Notes under the pieces: model-generated
Databases searched by the model: none
Told to the model about the DNA's origin: nothing
Seen by the model: only the letters and a program-made list of their open reading frames with translations
Virus genome (UHGV): UHGV-2008032
DNA: 40,884 nucleotides
Strand: one strand, 5' to 3'
Source of the DNA: a virus
Translations under genes and position numbers: made by a program
Part shown: positions 10,317-39,966 of the stretch, in pieces
Layout: each line of letters starts with the position of its first letter
Numbering within the stretch: position 1 is the stretch's first letter

Positions 10317-10357
10317 TACATTGATTTTAAAGGTAATTTAATTTTCTTTGGGCAACA

Positions 10358-10380
10358 AAAAACCCGCCGAAGCGGGTTTG
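10358..10380 (-). terminator. Terminator downstream of cI (U-rich on both strands)
   Basis: Stem AAACCCGC/GCGGGTTT with loop CGAA; U-run follows on the minus strand, 23 nt past the cI stop. Confidence 0.65.
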
Positions 10381-10402
10381 ATGTTTTTAAGTGGCGGGTA
10401 TA

Positions 10403-11044
10403 TCAGGAGAATTTCATCATCATCTGCACTGCTACGCCGATTATCTTGCAGTTGCCGTCGATTGGGATCAACGGATAGGCAGGGTTAAGCCCTTTCAGGT
10501 ATTTGTTACCGCCATCAATGATTAGCTTCTTGAACGTGGCTTCATTAGCATCTGTCAGCTTCGCAACTACCAGGCTTCCATTAACGGCTTCCTTTCCAGT
10601 GTCGAACAGAACCAGCATACCCTCAGGAACGCTAAGGCCGGTAGGAGCTGTCATTGAGTCGCCCTGAACCCTGAGCCAGAAGGCGTCACCGACAACGTGA
10701 CAATCTGATTCATACCACTCATCCACTGCCTGAGGGTTGTACGGCTCTACGGCCTCACTCCATGCACCTGCGCTAACCCAGCTAATCAACGGAAACTTTT
10801 CCCCTGGCTTGTATTGTCCCTGATAGTTGTCGCCAAAAAGCAGTTCTGCCGGAGCGACACCCAAAGCTTTAGCTATTACCTCTGCGTCATCAACACTAAC
10901 GCTTCTGGTTCCTGATTCATAGTTGCCGATCCGAGATTGTGAAGCCCAGCCGCAAAGCTCCGCAAGAGCCTTCTGTGTAAGCCCTTTATCTTCCCGTAAT
11001 CGCTTGATACGCGCGGCGATAGTTTCTGTTCTGTTCATGCGCAT
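10403..11044 (-). CDS. cI: CI-like repressor (HTH plus LexA-like S24 autopeptidase)
   Basis: N-terminal XRE-type HTH; C-terminal GDSM serine and downstream lysine; divergent from cro; -10-like TATAAA abuts the ATG, so the mRNA may be leaderless. Confidence 0.85.
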   Translation of the reverse strand: MRMNRTETIAARIKRLREDKGLTQKALAELCGWASQSRIGNYESGTRSVSVDDAEVIAKALGVAPAELLFGDNYQGQYKPGEKFPLISWVSAGAWSEAVEPYNPQAVDEWYESDCHVVGDAFWLRVQGDSMTAPTGLSVPEGMLVLFDTGKEAVNGSLVVAKLTDANEATFKKLIIDGGNKYLKGLNPAYPLIPIDGNCKIIGVAVQMMMKFS

Positions 11045-16681: not shown

Positions 16682-16863
16682 ACGCCACAATTCAAACGAT
16701 ACCAGAGCTTCTTATCCAGACACGAGGCAATCAGACCGAAGTGGCGAGGATGCTTTCCTGTGCAAGAGGAACAGTGCTCAAGTACAACCGAGACAGCAAA
16801 GGTGAGCGTCACGTAATAGTTAACGGCGTCCTGATGGTAACGCCAGGCAAAAAGGGAAGATGA
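16678..16863 (+). CDS. ninH: NinH-like small DNA-binding protein
   Basis: ...YGNQTEVARMLSCARGTVLKY... matches the lambda NinH pattern. Confidence 0.6.
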   Translation: MNATIQTIPELLIQTRGNQTEVARMLSCARGTVLKYNRDSKGERHVIVNGVLMVTPGKKGR

Positions 16864-17381
16864 TGAGCATAAGAGAACTAAACCTCACCAAAGAACAGCA
16901 CGATTGGCTGAATTGCTGGCTTGAACTGTGGGGCGCATGGGTTTATTCAGGTCGTCTGGAAAAGCGCATGAGCAGCGTAATAGCGAAGTTCATGGAGAGC
17001 GTAGAGCCGGGAAGAGTTATGACAAGGCCAATGTGCAATGATGATGATGGAATGTTGATTTCTCAGGTCGTCGATTCCGTCATGTACATTGACAAGAAAG
17101 CCTTTGGCATCCTCCTCAGCTACTACGCTCATGGTTCATCTAAGCGAGCAATTGCATCCTACTATCACGCGACTGCAAAGCCACGCAAGATGTGTGGACG
17201 TGGTGGCGAGGGATGGAGAAAACCTTCACTGGCAACCTGTAGAAACGAAATTGACGACATCCTGAAAGCGTCGTTATTTGTTTTGTACCAGCCAATGCAA
17301 AATGCTTTCAAAATGCGTAAACGTGTTGAGAAAGTTAAGCATGTTGCTGTTAAAAGCCTTGACATGCAATTATCCATTTAG
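16860..17381 (+). CDS. Late-gene antiterminator Q-like protein
   Basis: Last gene of the nin region; ...WGAW...RPMCNDDDGMLI... pattern resembles Q-family proteins; followed by a strong promoter. Confidence 0.6.
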   Translation: MMSIRELNLTKEQHDWLNCWLELWGAWVYSGRLEKRMSSVIAKFMESVEPGRVMTRPMCNDDDGMLISQVVDSVMYIDKKAFGILLSYYAHGSSKRAIASYYHATAKPRKMCGRGGEGWRKPSLATCRNEIDDILKASLFVLYQPMQNAFKMRKRVEKVKHVAVKSLDMQLSI

Positions 17382-17388
17382 CCATAAT
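17359..17388 (+). promoter_or_regulatory. Late promoter candidate (PR-prime-like): TTGACA-18-CATAAT
   Basis: -35 at 17359..17364 inside the Q 3' end; -10 at 17383..17388 just after the Q stop. Confidence 0.55.
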
Positions 17389-17398
17389 TAGAAGGTAA

Positions 17399-17440
17399 GC
17401 TGCCGTTAGTGACTCTTAAGTTGCAATGGTGGCTTTTTTT
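17399..17440 (+). terminator. Possible tR-prime-like terminator (weak hairpin plus T7 run)
   Basis: 9-bp stem with three G-U pairs and a 17-nt loop, then TTTTTTT at 17434..17440. Confidence 0.3.
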
Positions 17441-17598
17441 GTTTGCACAACAGGTAAGAGCATTGAACCCGCAGACCTCGCGGAATTGGTGAAAGGTGCC
17501 GCGCAGTGCTCTTATCGTTGTGGTGAACTCAATGGCGAGCTAGCAGATAGGCGACAGTGAAAATACTAGTCATGTAGCTGACCGCCGCGCGTACTGCA

Positions 17599-17647
17599 AT
17601 CGGCAGCGCACCGATGGAAGCCGGTTCGATTCCGGCCGCCACAACCC
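17599..17647 (+). other. tRNA-like remnant (anticodon-arm-like and T-arm-like hairpins, no acceptor or D arm)
   Basis: ATCGG/CAGCGCA/CCGAT hairpin then GCCGG/TTCGATT/CCGGC T-arm with canonical GGTTCGATTCC loop; no matching 5' half found. Confidence 0.25.
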
Positions 17648-17808
17648 AAACTGAGCCGTAGCCACTGGCTATCCTGAATTCATCAGTGATAGTTACGCTG
17701 CGGCCTTCTACACATGACCTTCGTGAAAGCGGGTGGTTCAATTCTGCTGTCTTCTTCACGTTAAAAGAGGAATTAGGCTTCGAAAATGCAAAAACTTGCA
17801 AAAATGAC

Positions 17809-17836
17809 TTGAAAACGAGTTTTGAAACTGCATAAT
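17809..17836 (+). promoter_or_regulatory. Candidate promoter TTGAAA-16-CATAAT upstream of the cargo leader
   Basis: -35 at 17809..17814, -10 at 17831..17836 in an AT-rich spacer. Confidence 0.35.
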
Positions 17837-17918
17837 TCCTATATGCTCGGACGTCAAAGGCGAAAGAGCTTACCCACCAGCGAAGATGCCTTGTGCGGAG
17901 CGGTGGGAAACACATTCA

Positions 17919-17947
17919 AGCCCTTGCAGAAATGCAGGGGCTTTTTT
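17919..17947 (+). terminator. Strong intrinsic terminator 31 nt upstream of the first cargo gene
   Basis: 10-bp stem AGCCCTTGCA/TGCAGGGGCT with GAAA tetraloop followed by TTTTTT. Confidence 0.7.
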
Positions 17948-17977
17948 ATTGGCTCAGTGCCACCAGGTGAACACCGT

Positions 17978-18529
17978 ATGCACACGGCGATCATTTGCGC
18001 TTCCGGACCTTCCCTCACCCACGACGACTGCCAGAAAGCCATTGGCGCTGGATTACCCGTTATTGCGGTGAATTCTTCATGGCGCGCGGTGCCGGGATGC
18101 TCTCACATTTACGCGGGTGATCTGCGCTGGTGGGATGTGAACATTCCCGCGCTGCCCGATGGCCCCGAACGCTGGTCATGTAACCGGAGAGCACACACCC
18201 GATACGGCGTGAGCCTCTTCCCGACAGATACCAGCGGCACATTCAATTCGGGGCAGAGAGCAATCCTGTTCGCTCACTGGCTGGGTGCCAGTAGCATCAT
18301 CCTTCTGGGCTTCGATTGCTCAATCTCAAACGGTAGTCACTGGCACGGCGATCACACAGTCCTCGATAACCCGACAGCAGCGAACGTAAAGCGCTGGCAT
18401 GGCGAGTTTGCCCGGGTTGCGGCGCAGCTGCGTGGAAGCGTCAATATCATCAACAGCAGCCGCCAGACGGCGCTTAATTGCTTTCGTCGCTTACCTCTTG
18501 AAGCTGCGATCAGCGAGGTTACATGCTGA
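17978..18529 (+). CDS. Cargo protein A: CstII/GT42-like or DUF115-like Rossmann-fold putative glycosyltransferase
   Basis: ATG 17978 with AGGTGA 7 nt upstream, after the terminator; motifs IICASGPSL, VIAVNSS, NSGQRAILFAHWLGASSIILLGFDCS, HWHGDH parallel the GNGPSL and YLSGIDFY layout of CstII-type enzymes. Confidence 0.45.
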   Translation: MHTAIICASGPSLTHDDCQKAIGAGLPVIAVNSSWRAVPGCSHIYAGDLRWWDVNIPALPDGPERWSCNRRAHTRYGVSLFPTDTSGTFNSGQRAILFAHWLGASSIILLGFDCSISNGSHWHGDHTVLDNPTAANVKRWHGEFARVAAQLRGSVNIINSSRQTALNCFRRLPLEAAISEVTC

Positions 18530-19464
18530 ATCCTCCGATTTACATCGATGGCATGCTGGGAATGGGAGATACCATTTACCAGCGCGCTTTCGTCAAACAA
18601 CTGCCTGCTGGGACATTCATTAAGACGGCATGGCCGGAGCTTTACGAAGATCTGCCGGTGAAAGTTGTCCGAAGTGACACCACGCTCAGAACGCAGCGTA
18701 AAAATGAGTTTCGCAGTTCGGCAAAGTTTTATCCGCCGCCATCGCCACGACAGACGAAGCGAATATTTTACGGACCGTATGATCTGCGGCGCGGTTCGAT
18801 ATTTGATGCGATGCGACGCCAGTTCGGCGTAACGCCAGCAGCGCTTGATTTGCCATCCTTTGGCCCGTCGCAGTTTACGCACCAAAAGCCGATCGCCGTT
18901 ATCCGTCCGGCAACGGTTCGTTCTGAATGGCGTAGCGACTCCCGAAACCCTGACCCCGATTACCTCCTGCGCGCATCGAGAATCCTGCGGAAACATTTCT
19001 GCGTGATTAGCGTTGCTGATTTGCAGGACGGGGAAGAGTGGCTGGTGGGTGAAGAACCAGAGGCGGATCTGAAAATGCACGCTGGCGAGCTCAATATCAA
19101 AGAGCTGATGCGCCTGGTTGAGCATGCCGCTGTCGTGGTTACGCCTGTTGGCTGGGCGCTGCCCGCTGCCATTGCGTACAAAACACCTGTTTACGTTGTC
19201 GCTGGTGGGCGCGGTGGGCATAACGCTCCCGAGATAGTCACCGATCCGGCGATGGATTTATCCCGCGTTGGCTGGGCAATCCCGGACAATTATTGTCGCT
19301 GCGAAGCGTGGGATCACCATTGCGACAAACGCATCTTCAACTTTGATTCAAAATTCGAGACATGGCTGAATGAAGTCGTTTTATCAGGAACTGAACAGCG
19401 GGCTGGTATTCCTCCCGGAGCTGGGCATCGGTCGTTATCCGGTTCCGGCATCACGCCCGTATGA
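18523..19464 (+). CDS. Cargo protein B: GT-B fold, GT9 (heptosyltransferase)-like putative glycosyltransferase
   Basis: 7-nt overlap with gene A; N-terminal IDGMLGMGDTIYQRAFVKQL and C-terminal AAVVVTPVGWALPAAIAYKTPVYVVAGG resemble the GT9 layout; Cys/His cluster CRCEAWDHHC. Confidence 0.45.
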   Translation: MLNPPIYIDGMLGMGDTIYQRAFVKQLPAGTFIKTAWPELYEDLPVKVVRSDTTLRTQRKNEFRSSAKFYPPPSPRQTKRIFYGPYDLRRGSIFDAMRRQFGVTPAALDLPSFGPSQFTHQKPIAVIRPATVRSEWRSDSRNPDPDYLLRASRILRKHFCVISVADLQDGEEWLVGEEPEADLKMHAGELNIKELMRLVEHAAVVVTPVGWALPAAIAYKTPVYVVAGGRGGHNAPEIVTDPAMDLSRVGWAIPDNYCRCEAWDHHCDKRIFNFDSKFETWLNEVVLSGTEQRAGIPPGAGHRSLSGSGITPV

Positions 19465-19984
19465 CGAGCAGTATTTCGCGAAGTATCAGCAGCTTGCCGA
19501 CACCGAAACAGGCAGAGCCTTAACGCAATCCCGTATTGAGCTGGTGGCGCGCCATTTTCACGGTCCTGTTCTCGACGTTGGTATCGGTGCCGGTCAGTTC
19601 GTCTCTACCCGACCGGGAACGCTTGGGTATGACATTAATCCGGCTGGTATCGCCTGGCTGAACGAGCGGGGCGCATTCGCTGACCTCTACGCCAGTCAGT
19701 GGCGCGCGCTGACGATGTGGGATGTCCTGGAGCACATCGACGAGCCGGAGCTGGCGGTACAGCAGGCTACAGAGTTTGTTTTCGTGTCGATCCCCATTTT
19801 TACCGATGCCGGAGACATTCTTCGCTCGCACCATTTCAGGAAGAACGAGCACATCTGGTATTTCACTGACGACGGTATTAAGCGCTGGTTTGCAGAGCAG
19901 GGCTTCGAATGCGCTGAACAGAACACAATCGAATGCCAGTTAGGGCGTAAGGGCGTCGCTTCGTACGCTTTCCGCCGCGTTTAG
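19370..19984 (+). CDS. Cargo protein C: class I SAM-dependent methyltransferase
   Basis: Motif I VLDVGIGAGQF, acidic loop YDINPAG, WDVLEHIDEP; no DPPY/NPPW DNA-methylase motif; start overlaps gene B by 95 nt. Confidence 0.55.
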   Translation: MKSFYQELNSGLVFLPELGIGRYPVPASRPYDEQYFAKYQQLADTETGRALTQSRIELVARHFHGPVLDVGIGAGQFVSTRPGTLGYDINPAGIAWLNERGAFADLYASQWRALTMWDVLEHIDEPELAVQQATEFVFVSIPIFTDAGDILRSHHFRKNEHIWYFTDDGIKRWFAEQGFECAEQNTIECQLGRKGVASYAFRRV

Positions 19985-21466: not shown

Positions 21467-21498
21467 TTTTTTTGCAAATCACAAAGTCAATTTAATGA

Positions 21499-21520
21499 GC
21501 CTCGCGATGCGGGGCTTTTT
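21499..21520 (+). terminator. Intrinsic terminator after the lysis cassette
   Basis: 7-bp stem GCCTCGC/GCGGGGC followed by TTTTT. Confidence 0.5.
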
Positions 21521-21664
21521 ATATCTGAATTTCACAGCGCATCTCACGCGCATATTAACGAGAGCCTTTCAGTAAGCGAGCCTGAGAAATGCCGTTATAG
21601 GTGGCGACCTCTCTCGGGCGGCTTTTCTGTGAGACAGGCTCACTTTCTAAAAGGTAAAGACGCT

Positions 21665-22183
21665 ATGAATCATCAATTGGCTAATCTCGATTTCCGGGAC
21701 ATGGTGGTTGTTTCTGGTGATCGCGTGATCACAACCTCCCGCAAGGTAGCAGCTTACTTCGACAAGCAGCATCACCACATCATTCAGAAAATCGAAAAGC
21801 TAGACTGTTCGGATGAATTTCTAACCAGCAACTTTTCGCGGGTTACCTATGAACACAAGGGTAATCAGTATGTTGAATATGAAATTTCCAAAGACGGCGC
21901 GATGTACATCATCATGTCGTTTACCGGCAAAAAAGCTGCCGCCATCAAAGAGGCGTTTATCAAAGCATTTAATTGGATGCGTGACAGGCTGATGGAGATG
22001 GCTCACTCATACCAAAGAGAGCACAACGAGTTAATGCTGGAGTTCATGAAGGAAAAGGATGTTGCCAGTATGTCAGGACGCTTGCTGAACCGCTGGGGCA
22101 GGATCAAAAAACCGCAACTCATAGCAAGAATCGAAAGGCTTGAGCAGCAGGCGCAAATATCGATCCCCGGACTGCCAAAGTGA
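21665..22183 (+). CDS. Rha-family phage regulatory protein
   Basis: ...SRKVAAYFDKQHHHIIQKI...MSFTGKKAAAIKEAFIKAFNWM... Rha-like; start placed at ATG 21665. Confidence 0.55.
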   Translation: MNHQLANLDFRDMVVVSGDRVITTSRKVAAYFDKQHHHIIQKIEKLDCSDEFLTSNFSRVTYEHKGNQYVEYEISKDGAMYIIMSFTGKKAAAIKEAFIKAFNWMRDRLMEMAHSYQREHNELMLEFMKEKDVASMSGRLLNRWGRIKKPQLIARIERLEQQAQISIPGLPK

Positions 22184-37269: not shown

Positions 37270-38334
37270 ATGTCTCTTAACTGGATGCGCCATTTTGAGT
37301 TGCAGCTGTTGGACCAGAACGGGCAGGGTATTTCCCTGTCTGATTTTAAGGTCACGTTCCAGATCGAGTGGGCAGATACACGCTGGCCGCGCGTGGCAAA
37401 CGTGAAAATTTACAACCTTTCGACCGATACCACGAACAAGATACTGGGGCAGGAATTTGCCAAAATTCGCATCATTGCCGGGTATGACGGTATTGCGCCG
37501 GATGTTGATGCGAGCCAGGTTGGTGTCGCCCGGGAGATTTCACCAGACCAGGTAGGGCAGGTGAACGGTCAGAACTACGGCCTGATATTTGACGGTGATA
37601 TTCGCTTCACCGTCACCGGGAAGGACAACATCACCGATTCCTGGGTGCTGATTCAGGCCATCAGTAACCACGAAGCGTTCCTCTACGCGACTACCATCAC
37701 CACGCTTGCCGCTGGTTATACCGTTGCGGACCTGCACCGGGCGACTATGCAGGATTTCAACGCGTTCGGCGTGACGCAGGGCATTACCGGTGACTTTCCT
37801 GATACCGTGTTTCCTCGTGGCCGTGCGATTTATTCATCCACCCGTAACGTGATGGATAATATTGCTGCGCAGTGCAAAGCGACATGGCAGCTGGTGGATG
37901 GTCAGGTCCAGATGGTGCCGGAGGATAAATATATTCACGAAGCCATTGTGTTGAATGCCGATACTGGCCTGATCGGTATGCCGCAACAAACGATGGGCGG
38001 CGGAGTAAACGTGCGGTGCCTGATAAACCCAAACATCCGTATTAATGGTCTTATCCAGCTCGATCAGGCTTCGGTGTACCGCGCTGCGCTCGGCAATAGC
38101 GAAATCGCTCAGTCGCCCGGGCGTATCACCGAAACGGAAGAGAACGGCAACCGCGTGCTGACAGGTACGACGTCACAGGCTGCCAGCATTGCGACAGATG
38201 GCGTTTATATCGTCAAAGCTATCGACTATACTGGCGACACCAGAGGTCAGGCGTGGTACATGGATTTGATGTGTTTTGCGCGTGGGGCTCGCGAGCTTTA
38301 CAGCCAGAATGCCATGCTGAAAACCAACTATTGA
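37270..38334 (+). CDS. Putative baseplate hub / tail protein, P2 gpD-like
   Basis: 354 aa; size and position after the tape measure gene. Confidence 0.4.
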   Translation: MSLNWMRHFELQLLDQNGQGISLSDFKVTFQIEWADTRWPRVANVKIYNLSTDTTNKILGQEFAKIRIIAGYDGIAPDVDASQVGVAREISPDQVGQVNGQNYGLIFDGDIRFTVTGKDNITDSWVLIQAISNHEAFLYATTITTLAAGYTVADLHRATMQDFNAFGVTQGITGDFPDTVFPRGRAIYSSTRNVMDNIAAQCKATWQLVDGQVQMVPEDKYIHEAIVLNADTGLIGMPQQTMGGGVNVRCLINPNIRINGLIQLDQASVYRAALGNSEIAQSPGRITETEENGNRVLTGTTSQAASIATDGVYIVKAIDYTGDTRGQAWYMDLMCFARGARELYSQNAMLKTNY

Positions 38335-38344
38335 GGTGAATATT

Positions 38345-38689
38345 GTGAAGCGTGTAGCAGCCGTAATTTTTCTGCTGACTTCGTTTTTATCCTTGAGTGC
38401 ATTTGCTGATTCACAATGTGGTAACTACAGGGTGCACTGGGCGGATGATGGGCTTGCAAGAATTAATGGCGCAAAACCAGAAACTCAAAAAATCACTTTT
38501 CTGAAAAAAGAAGGTGATTATAACAATGTAAAATTTGAGTGGGTTGTTGCTACCGATCAACCCGGTCGCTGGGTGGGAATGGAGTTCATTGGGCGCAACG
38601 GAAAAGCCATTCTCAATGTCCAGTGGCTGCAAGCCAGCATGAATGCGCCGCGTCAGTATGCAACATACGACTGCCGAAAAGTAAAATAG
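38345..38689 (+). CDS. Secreted protein (signal peptide, two Cys) within the tail cluster
   Basis: GTG 38345 with GAGGTG 6 nt upstream; MKRVAAVIFLLTSFLSLSAFA then DSQC...; Cys near each end of the mature protein. Confidence 0.5.
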   Translation: MKRVAAVIFLLTSFLSLSAFADSQCGNYRVHWADDGLARINGAKPETQKITFLKKEGDYNNVKFEWVVATDQPGRWVGMEFIGRNGKAILNVQWLQASMNAPRQYATYDCRKVK

Positions 38690-38707
38690 CCCGCCAGATA
38701 GGCGGGC
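38689..38707 (-). terminator. Hairpin between convergent accessory genes (terminator-like for the minus-strand gene)
   Basis: 7-bp stem GCCCGCC/GGCGGGC with loop AGATA; U-rich tract follows on the minus strand. Confidence 0.45.
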
Positions 38708-38712
38708 ATGCG

Positions 38713-39003
38713 TCAAAAATATTGAGCTTTAATTATAATAAACACAATAATTACGAACAGGATGTTTCTAATTATTTTTTGCTTATGAGTAAGTTGTTTT
38801 TTTTCTGTCGATTTCCCGGGAGAGTAAAGGTTAGTGGTATGCGACAGCCCCGTGCCGGGAAGGCCATTTGTCATCTTTACGCCTTTTTTCCCGATGTTAA
38901 TGGTGGAACCTTTACCACCAATTGAAGTGCTTACTCCGCTTTTGCTAATGTTGATCGCGAGTCCGGGCGCAATCCGGATTCTTTTGCGAAATCTAAAGCC
39001 CAT
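38713..39003 (-). CDS. DUF4236-like protein with C-terminal transmembrane helix
   Basis: MGFRFRKRIRIAPGLAINISKSGVSTSIGGKG...GLPGTGLSH signature; C-terminal IIRNILFVIIVFIII; AT-rich context; AGGAG 6 nt upstream of ATG. Confidence 0.55.
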   Translation of the reverse strand: MGFRFRKRIRIAPGLAINISKSGVSTSIGGKGSTINIGKKGVKMTNGLPGTGLSHTTNLYSPGKSTEKKQLTHKQKIIRNILFVIIVFIIIKAQYF

Positions 39004-39191
39004 TTGTTACTCCTGTAGTCAAGAATGCGATGGTGCAGGTCCACTCTATGGCGGCTTCATGGCTGAAATTGATTTTTAATGCTTACTTGTTGCAAATATA
39101 TCCTAATACACCTTGTGAATATGTGCCATTGCAGCGGAAAAGCCTTACTTCACACTGATGTAGCTTAGTTACTAAGAGATAATTGATACCA

Positions 39192-39215
39192 AACCAGCTT
39201 CGGCTGGTTTTTTTA
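39192..39215 (+). terminator. Intrinsic terminator 10 nt upstream of the baseplate spike gene
   Basis: 7-bp stem AACCAGC/GCTGGTT with loop TTCG followed by TTTTTTT. Confidence 0.65.
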
Positions 39216-39225
39216 TGGGGTTTTT

Positions 39226-39966
39226 ATGCCAATTCCTACTCAATCACAGATCGGCGGCGAGCAGCAGACCGCGCAGGCCATTGCCGATTCGGTGTCTACT
39301 CAGATGCGCGTAGCGATGCCTGGCATCATTCAGTCGTTCGATCCTGACGCTGTAACCTGCACAGTAGAGGTGGCGCTTCGCGGTATTGTTGGCGACGACT
39401 CCACCGAATTAAAACCGCTGGTGGATGTGCCTGTCATCTTCCCGCGCGGAGGCGGTTGCACGCTGACCTTTCCGGTAAAAGAAGGCGATGAGTGCCTGCT
39501 GATCTTTGCCGACCGTTGCATCGATTTCTGGTGGCAGAGCGGCGGCGTTCAGGAGACCGTCGACCCGCGCCAGCATGACTTATCTGATGCGTTCGCCATC
39601 GTTGGCCCGCAGTCGCAAGCGCAAAAAATCAGCGGTATCAGTACCAGCGCCGCGCAGCTGCGAACCGATGATGGTGTGGCGTTCGTAGAGGTTTCCGCAG
39701 GACATAACATCACCGTTCAAACACCGGGCCAGCTCACGGCTACGGCTGAAGGTGGAACGACAATCACATCCCCGACTATCACGCTGAACGGCAACGTAAC
39801 GATTAATGGCAATCTGTCTCAGGGAATGGGAGAAAGTGGTGGTACTGCGACGATGCTTGGGCCGGTTACGGTAACGAATGATGTGACAGCTTCAGGTATA
39901 AGTGTCGCCACGCATAAACATGGCGGAGTTCAGACAGGCGGGGGAACTACTGGAGGGCCGCAATAA
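39226..39966 (+). CDS. Baseplate spike protein, P2 gpV-like
   Basis: 246 aa; C-terminal ...VATHKHGGVQTGGGTTGGP; precedes gpW-like and J-like genes. Confidence 0.55.
   Translation: MPIPTQSQIGGEQQTAQAIADSVSTQMRVAMPGIIQSFDPDAVTCTVEVALRGIVGDDSTELKPLVDVPVIFPRGGGCTLTFPVKEGDECLLIFADRCIDFWWQSGGVQETVDPRQHDLSDAFAIVGPQSQAQKISGISTSAAQLRTDDGVAFVEVSAGHNITVQTPGQLTATAEGGTTITSPTITLNGNVTINGNLSQGMGESGGTATMLGPVTVTNDVTASGISVATHKHGGVQTGGGTTGGPQ

Follow-up and report, generated by a model that had tools for sequence, protein, structure and literature searches.

In phage P22, the ant moron (immI: mnt-arc-ant and sieA, gene 16 to gene 9) is situated immediately upstream of the tailspike gene (PMC2629481). The morons of phages HK97 and HK022, such as gene 15 in the HK97 tail operon, are extra genes of deviating GC content that separate two genes otherwise neighboring each other in related phages, carry their own terminator, and reside in the late structural operon (PMC3594210). 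In the Q21 antitermination system, which includes the late promoter PR′, the Q-binding element (QBE), and the terminator tR′, Q21 builds a nozzle at the channel through which RNA exits and prevents terminator hairpins from forming (bioRxiv 10.1101/651190). Two roles have been offered for terminators located inside such operons, partial termination or the stopping of spurious transcription that is not antiterminated (PMC8022706). Here we analyze a 40,884-nucleotide (nt) stretch of viral DNA, UHGV virus genome UHGV-2008032 (hereafter, the window), in which a terminator hairpin immediately precedes the gene for a gpV-like baseplate spike protein. The hairpin probably serves as an insulator or backstop, that is, as a moron terminator that would halt polymerases lacking Q upstream of the spike, baseplate, and fiber genes.

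This arrangement has its closest precedent in the P22 ant moron, whose transcript, as Berget, Poteete and Sauer reportedly found in 1983, ends before gene 9. As in P22, a hypervariable, largely independently expressed insert in a lambdoid late operon lies 5′ of a host-contacting spike gene, and polymerase coming from the late promoter must traverse the insert for the spike to be expressed (PMC2629481, PMC8022706). Two of the related loci compared with the window carry, at the same site and followed by a terminator, either a homolog of the P22 antirepressor Ant (L128; P22_AR_N, 1.8e-39) or an immI-like set of Arc-like repressors and antirepressors (L093), and the window terminator itself derives, by alignment, from an antirepressor gene. 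Unlike the podovirus tailspike of P22, the spike here belongs to the baseplate of a contractile tail, and the likeness is one of position only. The flanking genes are different as well; ant, arc, and mnt are absent from the window, where ~50 nt are all that is left of a Rha-type antirepressor gene; and the Q protein is of the 21 type, in contrast to the lambda-type gp23 of P22. The window element is an analogue and descendant of P22 immI, not a member of it.

The traits of the HK97 and HK022 morons given above all recur at this locus. Unlike these morons, however, it has no convincing promoter of its own that we could find, it is a composite island (a small secreted protein gene that we call o117, an opposite-strand cassette, and an orphan terminator), and it occupies a hotspot with ~80 families of cargo open reading frames (ORFs) rather than representing a single insertion. 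With the Q21 system, the window shares a Q homolog, a two-subsite direct repeat in a near-consensus candidate promoter at the end of the Q gene, and strong terminators downstream. It differs in that the putative QBE matches the prediction for phage L, not that for phage 21 (PMC8022706), and in that the terminator studied here is ~21.8 kb from the promoter, far past the position of tR′.

The hairpin upstream of the spike gene

The hairpin and its surroundings comprise the following elements.

39191–39198, plus strand: 5′ arm of the hairpin, AAACCAGC
39199–39202, plus strand: hairpin loop TTCG, a C(UUCG)G tetraloop
39203–39210, plus strand: 3′ arm of the hairpin, GCTGGTTT
within 39191–39210, plus strand: stem core CCAGC/GCTGG, a G-C core of 5 base pairs (bp)
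39208–39214, plus strand: unbroken T7 of the U-tract, followed by A at 39215 and T at 39216
39217–39225, plus strand: ribosome-binding region of the spike gene, with a Shine-Dalgarno-like GGGG at 39217–39220 and a TTTTT spacer
39226–39966, plus strand: gene for the gpV-like baseplate spike (246 amino acids), the first gene 3′ of the terminator

The last three stem positions are shared with the U-tract, which ends 9 bases before the spike ATG (39226); the stem ends 15 bases before it. A strong terminator about 10 nt before the gpV-like start codon had been proposed in a sequence-only reading, and the location agrees with the anatomy described here, as does the range given for it, 39192–39228, which covers the hairpin, tail, ribosome-binding site (RBS), and ATG. 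Our pattern scan also called the site terminator-like, counting four G-C pairs among its eight and a 4-nt loop. The RNAfold centroid of 39180–39230 has a free energy of −12.6 kcal/mol and the bare hairpin alone −10.7 kcal/mol, near the family median (−11.3 kcal/mol). Given the perfect U-tract, the hyperstable C(UUCG)G loop, and a free energy at the family median, strong termination at the hairpin is plausible as a sequence-based prediction, tempered by the short G-C core of 5 bp. We infer that the hairpin is a canonical Rho-independent terminator on the late-gene strand. A terminator role on the minus strand was considered and rejected: the reverse strand folds alike but is then followed by UUUGGUAUC, with 3 U only, and nothing real is transcribed leftward into the hairpin.

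The spike assignment comes from Pfam matches to the N-terminal spike domain (1.5e-41) and the GpV Apex motif (5.9e-09), and RefSeq names the protein ‘phage baseplate assembly protein V’. The ATG at 39226 is the first start codon past the upstream in-frame stop, so that the spike ORF cannot extend upstream and the hairpin is non-coding. Our promoter scan found no match between the hairpin and the ATG, where the available space is merely 9–15 nt. This leaves no room for a promoter, and expression of the spike, baseplate, and fiber genes thus requires read-through of the hairpin.

Within the single sequence, the site is not remarkable, and one hairpin is weak evidence. A loose scan of the window found 16 terminator-like sites compared to 12.2 ± 3.9 in shuffled sequences, a stricter scan found 9 plus-strand sites compared to 5.5 ± 1.9, and the fold z-score of the hairpin is −1.9. 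Because the pattern is not rare in a single sequence, a comparison with relatives was needed.

Conservation across related loci

The comparison covered 166 loci with spike homologs (80 each from bacterial genomes and IMG/VR, plus several taken from E. coli and phage records); the junction counts below refer to 164 related loci. In each locus, the stop codon of the baseplate hub gene, which borders the variable region on the left, and the start codon of the spike gene were located, and the last 45–80 nt were scanned for a hairpin with a T-run. Many of the IMG/VR loci are near-identical, and the counts that follow are counts of loci, not of independent events. A megablast search against the phage collection returned Omnitron as the sole match, and the wider set of loci came from protein-level searches and large contig collections.

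The presence of the terminator tracks the presence of inserted DNA. All loci with more than 500 nt of cargo have a terminator within 45 nt of the ATG (113/113), as do the four loci in which o117 (in L135, another small ORF) is followed by a spacer, with a hub–spike gap of 291–417 nt (4/4). No terminator was found where the hub and spike genes overlap by 1, 4, or 11 nt (0/24) or where hub, o117, and spike are tightly packed in the operon, with a gap of ~360 nt (0/5). True terminators are also present in eight of the ten gene-free gaps of 30–86 nt; in the other two (L068 and L076), no T-run follows the hairpin, the apparent ‘T-run’ being the RBS spacer, and both were false positives of the tolerant scan. 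These eight terminator-only loci (L018, L022, L025, L061, L064, L066, L067, and L071) come from several genera and have the same layout, with the hub stop codon followed by 10–50 nt, the hairpin with its T-run, the RBS, and the spike ATG. An Erwinia/Pantoea clade of cargo-free loci, in which the spike has diverged by ~30%, keeps the T-run in four of six members, L068 and L076 being those that lost it.

The position is also strongly enriched for terminators. The strict scan detected 273 plus-strand terminators across 1.06 Mb of the related loci, and 146 of them fall within 100 nt before the spike ATG; elsewhere in these loci, their density is ~0.12 per kb. In nearly all loci, the stem ends 15–24 nt before the ATG and abuts a GGRG Shine-Dalgarno sequence, and the succession of GGRG, 5–9 nt, and ATG is itself conserved among the relatives.

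The stem sequence varies and the pairing persists. The relatives contain 63 distinct hairpin sequences, with stems that include CCAGC/GCTGG, CCCGC/GCGGG, CCTGC/GCAGG, GCCGC/GCGGC, CCCACC/GGTGGG, and GGTCGCC/GGCGGCC. In an alignment of 40 sequences from diverse relatives (alignment A1), five of the eight stem pairs are altered on both sides and the T-run columns are invariant. Pairing holds in 89.7% of the cells compared to 32–52% when the partner is slid, and none of 500 shuffles reaches the observed values; the aligned set was picked by the hairpin finder, which inflates the percentage paired and, to a lesser degree, the contrast with slid and shuffled partners in compensatory changes. Thus, judged by conservation and covariation, the hairpin is a real and maintained feature.

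Most relatives carry a cargo ORF on the plus strand that stops no more than ~30 nt from the hairpin, the arrangement classically seen in morons. The majority of the cargo is co-directional with the late operon, with the reservation that cargo strand was taken from a crude call of the last ORF (in the window, it picked a spurious overlapping ORF) and indicates a general trend only. Across ~130 loci, the hub–spike junction is a hypervariable cargo hotspot with the ~80 ORF families mentioned above, among them Phd/Doc, the YafO toxin, T5orf172, DUF2335, HEPN-like proteins, antirepressors, and Arc-like repressors. Of these, Phd/Doc, YafO, T5orf172, DUF2335, the P22 Ant homolog, and the Arc-like repressors are of kinds usually expressed from prophages.

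The accessory island and the origin of the hairpin

The window is an E. coli prophage with lambdoid regulation and a contractile tail; over the hairpin region, it matches E. coli strains EC596 and CUPF09 at 100% identity. The following features define the island and its context.

10403–11044: gene for a CI-like repressor, indicating lambdoid regulation
from 20249: holin, endolysin, and spanin genes, followed by the long plus-strand structural operon
37270–38334, plus strand: baseplate hub gene, bordering the variable region on the left
38336–38689, plus strand: o117, the gene for a small secreted protein, directly 3′ of the hub gene
38713–39003, minus strand: DUF4236 cargo gene (Pfam, 1.8e-20; RefSeq annotation), encoding a protein with a C-terminal hydrophobic tail
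38707–38689, minus strand: terminator of the DUF4236 gene, GCCCGCC-TATCT-GGCGGGC with a T-rich tail, −15.5 kcal/mol
~39120–39168, plus strand: decayed 3′ end of a Rha-type antirepressor gene, ending in FRYNAEGVKALRHLIHGADVA and a stop (alignment A2)
39169–39190, plus strand: former 3′ untranslated region (UTR), from the antirepressor stop codon to the hairpin, common to L093 and L137

The hub protein matches the Pfam family E217_GP41 baseplate hub slightly under the cut-off (7.4e-06), and its counterpart in Salmonella phage SEN34, located between the tape-measure and spike genes, is annotated as ‘baseplate hub’. The hub–spike gap is 891 nt in the window. GC content is 0.39–0.48 across 38300–39200 compared to 0.52–0.59 in both flanks, and the drop begins at o117. 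Three of the hallmarks of morons after Juhala and Hendrix are found here, namely, insertion between adjacent genes, an own downstream terminator, and deviating base composition.

Homologs of o117 directly follow the hub gene in 108 related loci, and the protein has no Pfam family; in the five loci where the gene is tightly packed and no terminator is present, identity falls to 23–35%. In L087, o117 is fused to a lipoprotein-like N-terminal part of 180 amino acids (296 in total). The gene may be an old, semi-fixed accessory gene, encoding, for example, an exclusion or envelope protein; it has no plus-strand terminator of its own. The DUF4236 gene is transcribed away from the spike gene, is separated from the hairpin by a spacer of 187 nt, and ends in its own terminator, which is followed by no T-run on the plus strand. 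Being on the opposite strand and having a terminator of its own, it is not the gene that the hairpin terminates. The consensus scan found no promoter for this minus-strand gene.

The gene that the hairpin once terminated can be recognized from its remains. A segment of ~62 nt that includes an identical hairpin is found in L093 after an intact plus-strand Rha-type antirepressor gene, in a locus with Arc-like repressors and a second antirepressor as additional cargo. L137 has a homologous 3′ UTR with a different, compensated stem (GCCCGC/GCGGG), and L088 lacks 11 nt of the former 3′ UTR. Aligned with the intact antirepressor genes of L093 and L137 (alignment A2, in which the boundaries of the remnant are approximate), the window shows a 3′-terminal remnant with deletions of 6 nt and 12 nt and the old TAG stop codon at 39166–39168. 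Because 39120–39216 is homologous to the 3′-terminal part of an antirepressor gene together with its UTR and terminator, the hairpin is an orphaned antirepressor terminator. The alignments show its descent from an antirepressor moron, the body of which gave way to the DUF4236 cassette.

As the orphan of a lost gene, the hairpin might be a neutral relic, one that still folds but has no selected role and is tolerated given that Q-modified polymerase ignores it and its deletion risks damage to the spike RBS. Q makes terminators in the late operon nearly cost-free, and the decay of the T-run in L068 and L076 is what such a relic would be expected to show. Nevertheless, decay would be expected more frequently than is observed if the hairpin were purely neutral: retention is complete in the loci with more than 500 nt of highly diverse cargo (113/113), the 63 stem variants keep pairing through compensatory changes, and the T-run columns of alignment A1 are invariant. 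We therefore regard neutrality as unlikely.

The shared ~62 nt, present in loci with different cargo, could also belong to a discrete small RNA (sRNA), either IsrK-like or derived from the 3′ UTR, that is encoded in 39130–39216 and ends at the terminator. A weak Rfam match to isrK (23.4 bits, E-value of 0.003–0.013, 39131–39213) points in this direction, and the segment, A/U-rich ahead of a hairpin that ends in a long U-tail, looks similar to Hfq-binding modules. Like IsrK, the Hfq-binding RNA of Gifsy-1 (RF01394), the region is located in a prophage and has a three-hairpin outline ending in a terminator. The isrK score, however, is far under the gathering threshold of 50 bits and comes mostly from the terminator. 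The first two stems contain non-canonical pairs, and the middle hairpin is dispensable, as L088 lacks 11 nt of it. Furthermore, the 87-nt candidate folds no better than shuffled sequences (z = −0.59), its upstream part is a decayed coding remnant, and the consensus scan found no plus-strand promoter for it. Scanning the whole window against Rfam at the gathering level gave no match, and the permissive matches (isrK, Trp leader, rsmX, and STnc130) were all rejected as sub-threshold and driven by the terminator. By these sequence measures, the region is not a member of the IsrK family, and an sRNA of either kind is very improbable.

Several observations concern the neighborhood of the island. 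In EC596 (L004, NZ_CP156718.1, 3594378–3597911), the junction lies in a prophage remnant in which a truncated hub gene abuts two integrase genes near Zorya, type I restriction-modification, and other defense genes; the baseplate J and DUF2612 genes of this remnant seem to be fused or deleted. The spike stop codon overlaps the start of the next gene at 39966, and the window has no insert there. In 16 related loci, a second cluster of plus-strand terminators is found +700 to +900 nt from the spike ATG, which suggests a further insertion site between the spike gene and the next baseplate gene, and SEN34 has an extra small ORF between these two genes. A bidirectional-looking terminator, AAACCCGC-TTCG-GCGGGTTT, flanked by an A-run and a T-run, is located at 10354–10385, just downstream of the cI-like gene, and resembles, in its generic sequence type, the hub–spike terminators of many relatives.

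Q antitermination and the role of the terminator

Read-through of the hairpin would depend on the Q system of the window, which comprises the following elements.

16860–17381, plus strand: gene for the Q antiterminator (Pfam Phage_antitermQ, PF06530, 1.4e-25)
17359–17388, plus strand: late-promoter candidate TTGACA-18-CATAAT, an 11/12 match, at the end of the Q gene
17918–17943, plus strand: strong terminator downstream of the late promoter, with an 11-bp stem, −18.4 kcal/mol
21497–21517, plus strand: strong terminator within the late operon, directly past the lysis genes, with a 9-bp stem, −13.6 kcal/mol

Q is a very close homolog of Q21, and its residues 2–163 match the Q21 structures 6P18 and 6JNX in the Protein Data Bank with E-values of 8.5e-90 and 3.7e-90, respectively. 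The spacer of the candidate promoter contains a QBE-like direct repeat, AATTATCC/ATTTAGCC (17368–17383), which is unique in the window; the same 16-mer has been predicted to be the QBE of Salmonella phage L (PMC8022706). With two further strong terminators interrupting it, the late operon evidently relies on antitermination throughout.

We propose the following course of events. The hairpin would be the fixed right-hand end of a moron hotspot between the hub and spike genes. It first ended a plus-strand Rha-type antirepressor gene, the body of which was then exchanged for a minus-strand DUF4236 cassette; the last ~50 nt of the gene, its 3′ UTR, and its terminator stayed behind ahead of the spike RBS. 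An RNA polymerase lacking Q in the lysogen, whether it started at island promoters, came through o117, or initiated spuriously upstream, would halt ~8 nt short of the spike Shine-Dalgarno sequence, and the spike, baseplate, and fiber genes would stay silent. Upon induction, the Q21-type protein would load at the late promoter, at the QBE, travel with the polymerase, and block hairpin formation in the RNA-exit channel, so that a single late transcript would pass the hairpin as well as the terminators at 17918 and 21497. We infer all three functional elements of this proposal, namely, termination in the lysogen, read-through conferred by Q, and an insulating benefit.

The sequence-only reading had held that the genes downstream of the hairpin can be expressed only by Q-modified transcription. 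The absence of promoter space, the Q21 homolog, the QBE-like repeat, and the two further terminators in the late operon speak for Q-dependent read-through. Intrinsic terminators leak, and ‘only’ is therefore too strong. The same reading had held it probable that the terminator insulates the late genes from island promoters active in the lysogen. The association with inserted DNA (0/24 compared to 113/113) argues for this part, and the opposite orientation of the adjoining gene and the lack of a convincing island promoter argue against it. Moreover, with eight relatives having the terminator and no island, insulation from island promoters is not the whole story. The earlier reading is thus right for the most part, though incomplete.

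These last points also weigh against the insulator or backstop function itself. The gene adjoining the hairpin is on the other strand, and our search for a convincing plus-strand promoter in the island returned just 9/12 matches, at 38204–38232 and 38722–38751. In eight relatives, the terminator is present without any cargo, and the loss of the T-run in L068 and L076 indicates that selection may be weak or differently based. With a G-C core of just 5 bp, the efficiency of termination could be modest. The near-identity of many IMG/VR loci and the choice of the aligned set by the hairpin finder, both described above, are to be counted on the same side.

The cargo-free terminators bear on another explanation, attenuation, in which partial termination would lower the amount of spike, baseplate, and fiber messenger RNA relative to that of the head, sheath, and tube, or would control the late operon independently of cargo. 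Such terminators occur in eight loci and several genera, including the Erwinia/Pantoea clade with its ~30% spike divergence, and partial termination is one of the roles named for intra-operon terminators (PMC8022706). However, a Q21-type Q sterically prevents hairpins, and Q-loaded polymerase should largely ignore the site; the 29 relatives with overlapping or tightly packed genes do without a terminator, and two cargo-free members of the clade have lost the T-run. Attenuation thus seems quite improbable.

We also consider, tentatively and with considerable doubt, that the terminator and the spike RBS together form a module that has been selected for itself, and is more than an appendage of individual morons, as a persistent barrier and landing pad ahead of the spike, baseplate, and fiber block across Enterobacterales phages of this type, even where cargo is absent. 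Cargo would turn over upstream of the module, recombination being anchored by the module on one side and the 3′ end of the hub gene on the other. If this were so, the host-recognition genes would have a specific need to be walled off or dosed, and the hub–spike junction would be a previously undescribed accessory and defense hotspot of fixed transcriptional architecture.

Other features of the late region around Q were noted. A T-rich tract (GGTGGCTTTTTTTG, ~17431–17443) follows a long-loop hairpin ~20 nt past the late promoter and could be a first tR′-like terminator. In phage L and the Stx phages, tRNA genes are located downstream of the late promoter. ARAGORN found no tRNA gene in the window, where sequences resembling a tRNA T-arm, GGTTCGATTCCGGCCGCCACA and GGTTCGATTCCGGCC, lie near 17620 (17600–17660), downstream of the late promoter, and may represent a decayed tRNA gene. 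The interval between Q and the late promoter, on one side, and the holin gene, on the other, is occupied by stx in Stx phages; here, it contains three ORFs (17822–19984), one with a sub-cut-off MptE-like match and one with a Methyltransf_23 domain. The 17918–17943 terminator lies inside the first ORF listed, which makes the TTG start of that ORF doubtful. A Rha-family regulator gene (Phage_pRha and ORF11CD3; 21629–22183), situated after the 21497–21517 terminator and before the terminase genes, adds a further moron-like insert to the late operon.

The layout described here, a textbook moron combined with antitermination, is known, and an element of this kind is ordinary. Mildly novel are the terminator/RBS module as the fixed right edge of a diverse hotspot and its cargo-free occurrence. 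For the hairpin finding alone, very little changes, except that the late operon should not be split at the hairpin in annotation. The terminator-only junctions provide a natural test case for the role of intra-operon terminators in Q-controlled late operons (PMC8022706). The hub–spike hotspot is easily located, with the terminator/RBS module as a sharp right-hand landmark for mining, and the layout of P22, HK97, and lambda extends to a group of myoviruses with lambdoid regulation, the relatives of Salmonella phage SEN34 and Citrobacter phage Omnitron.

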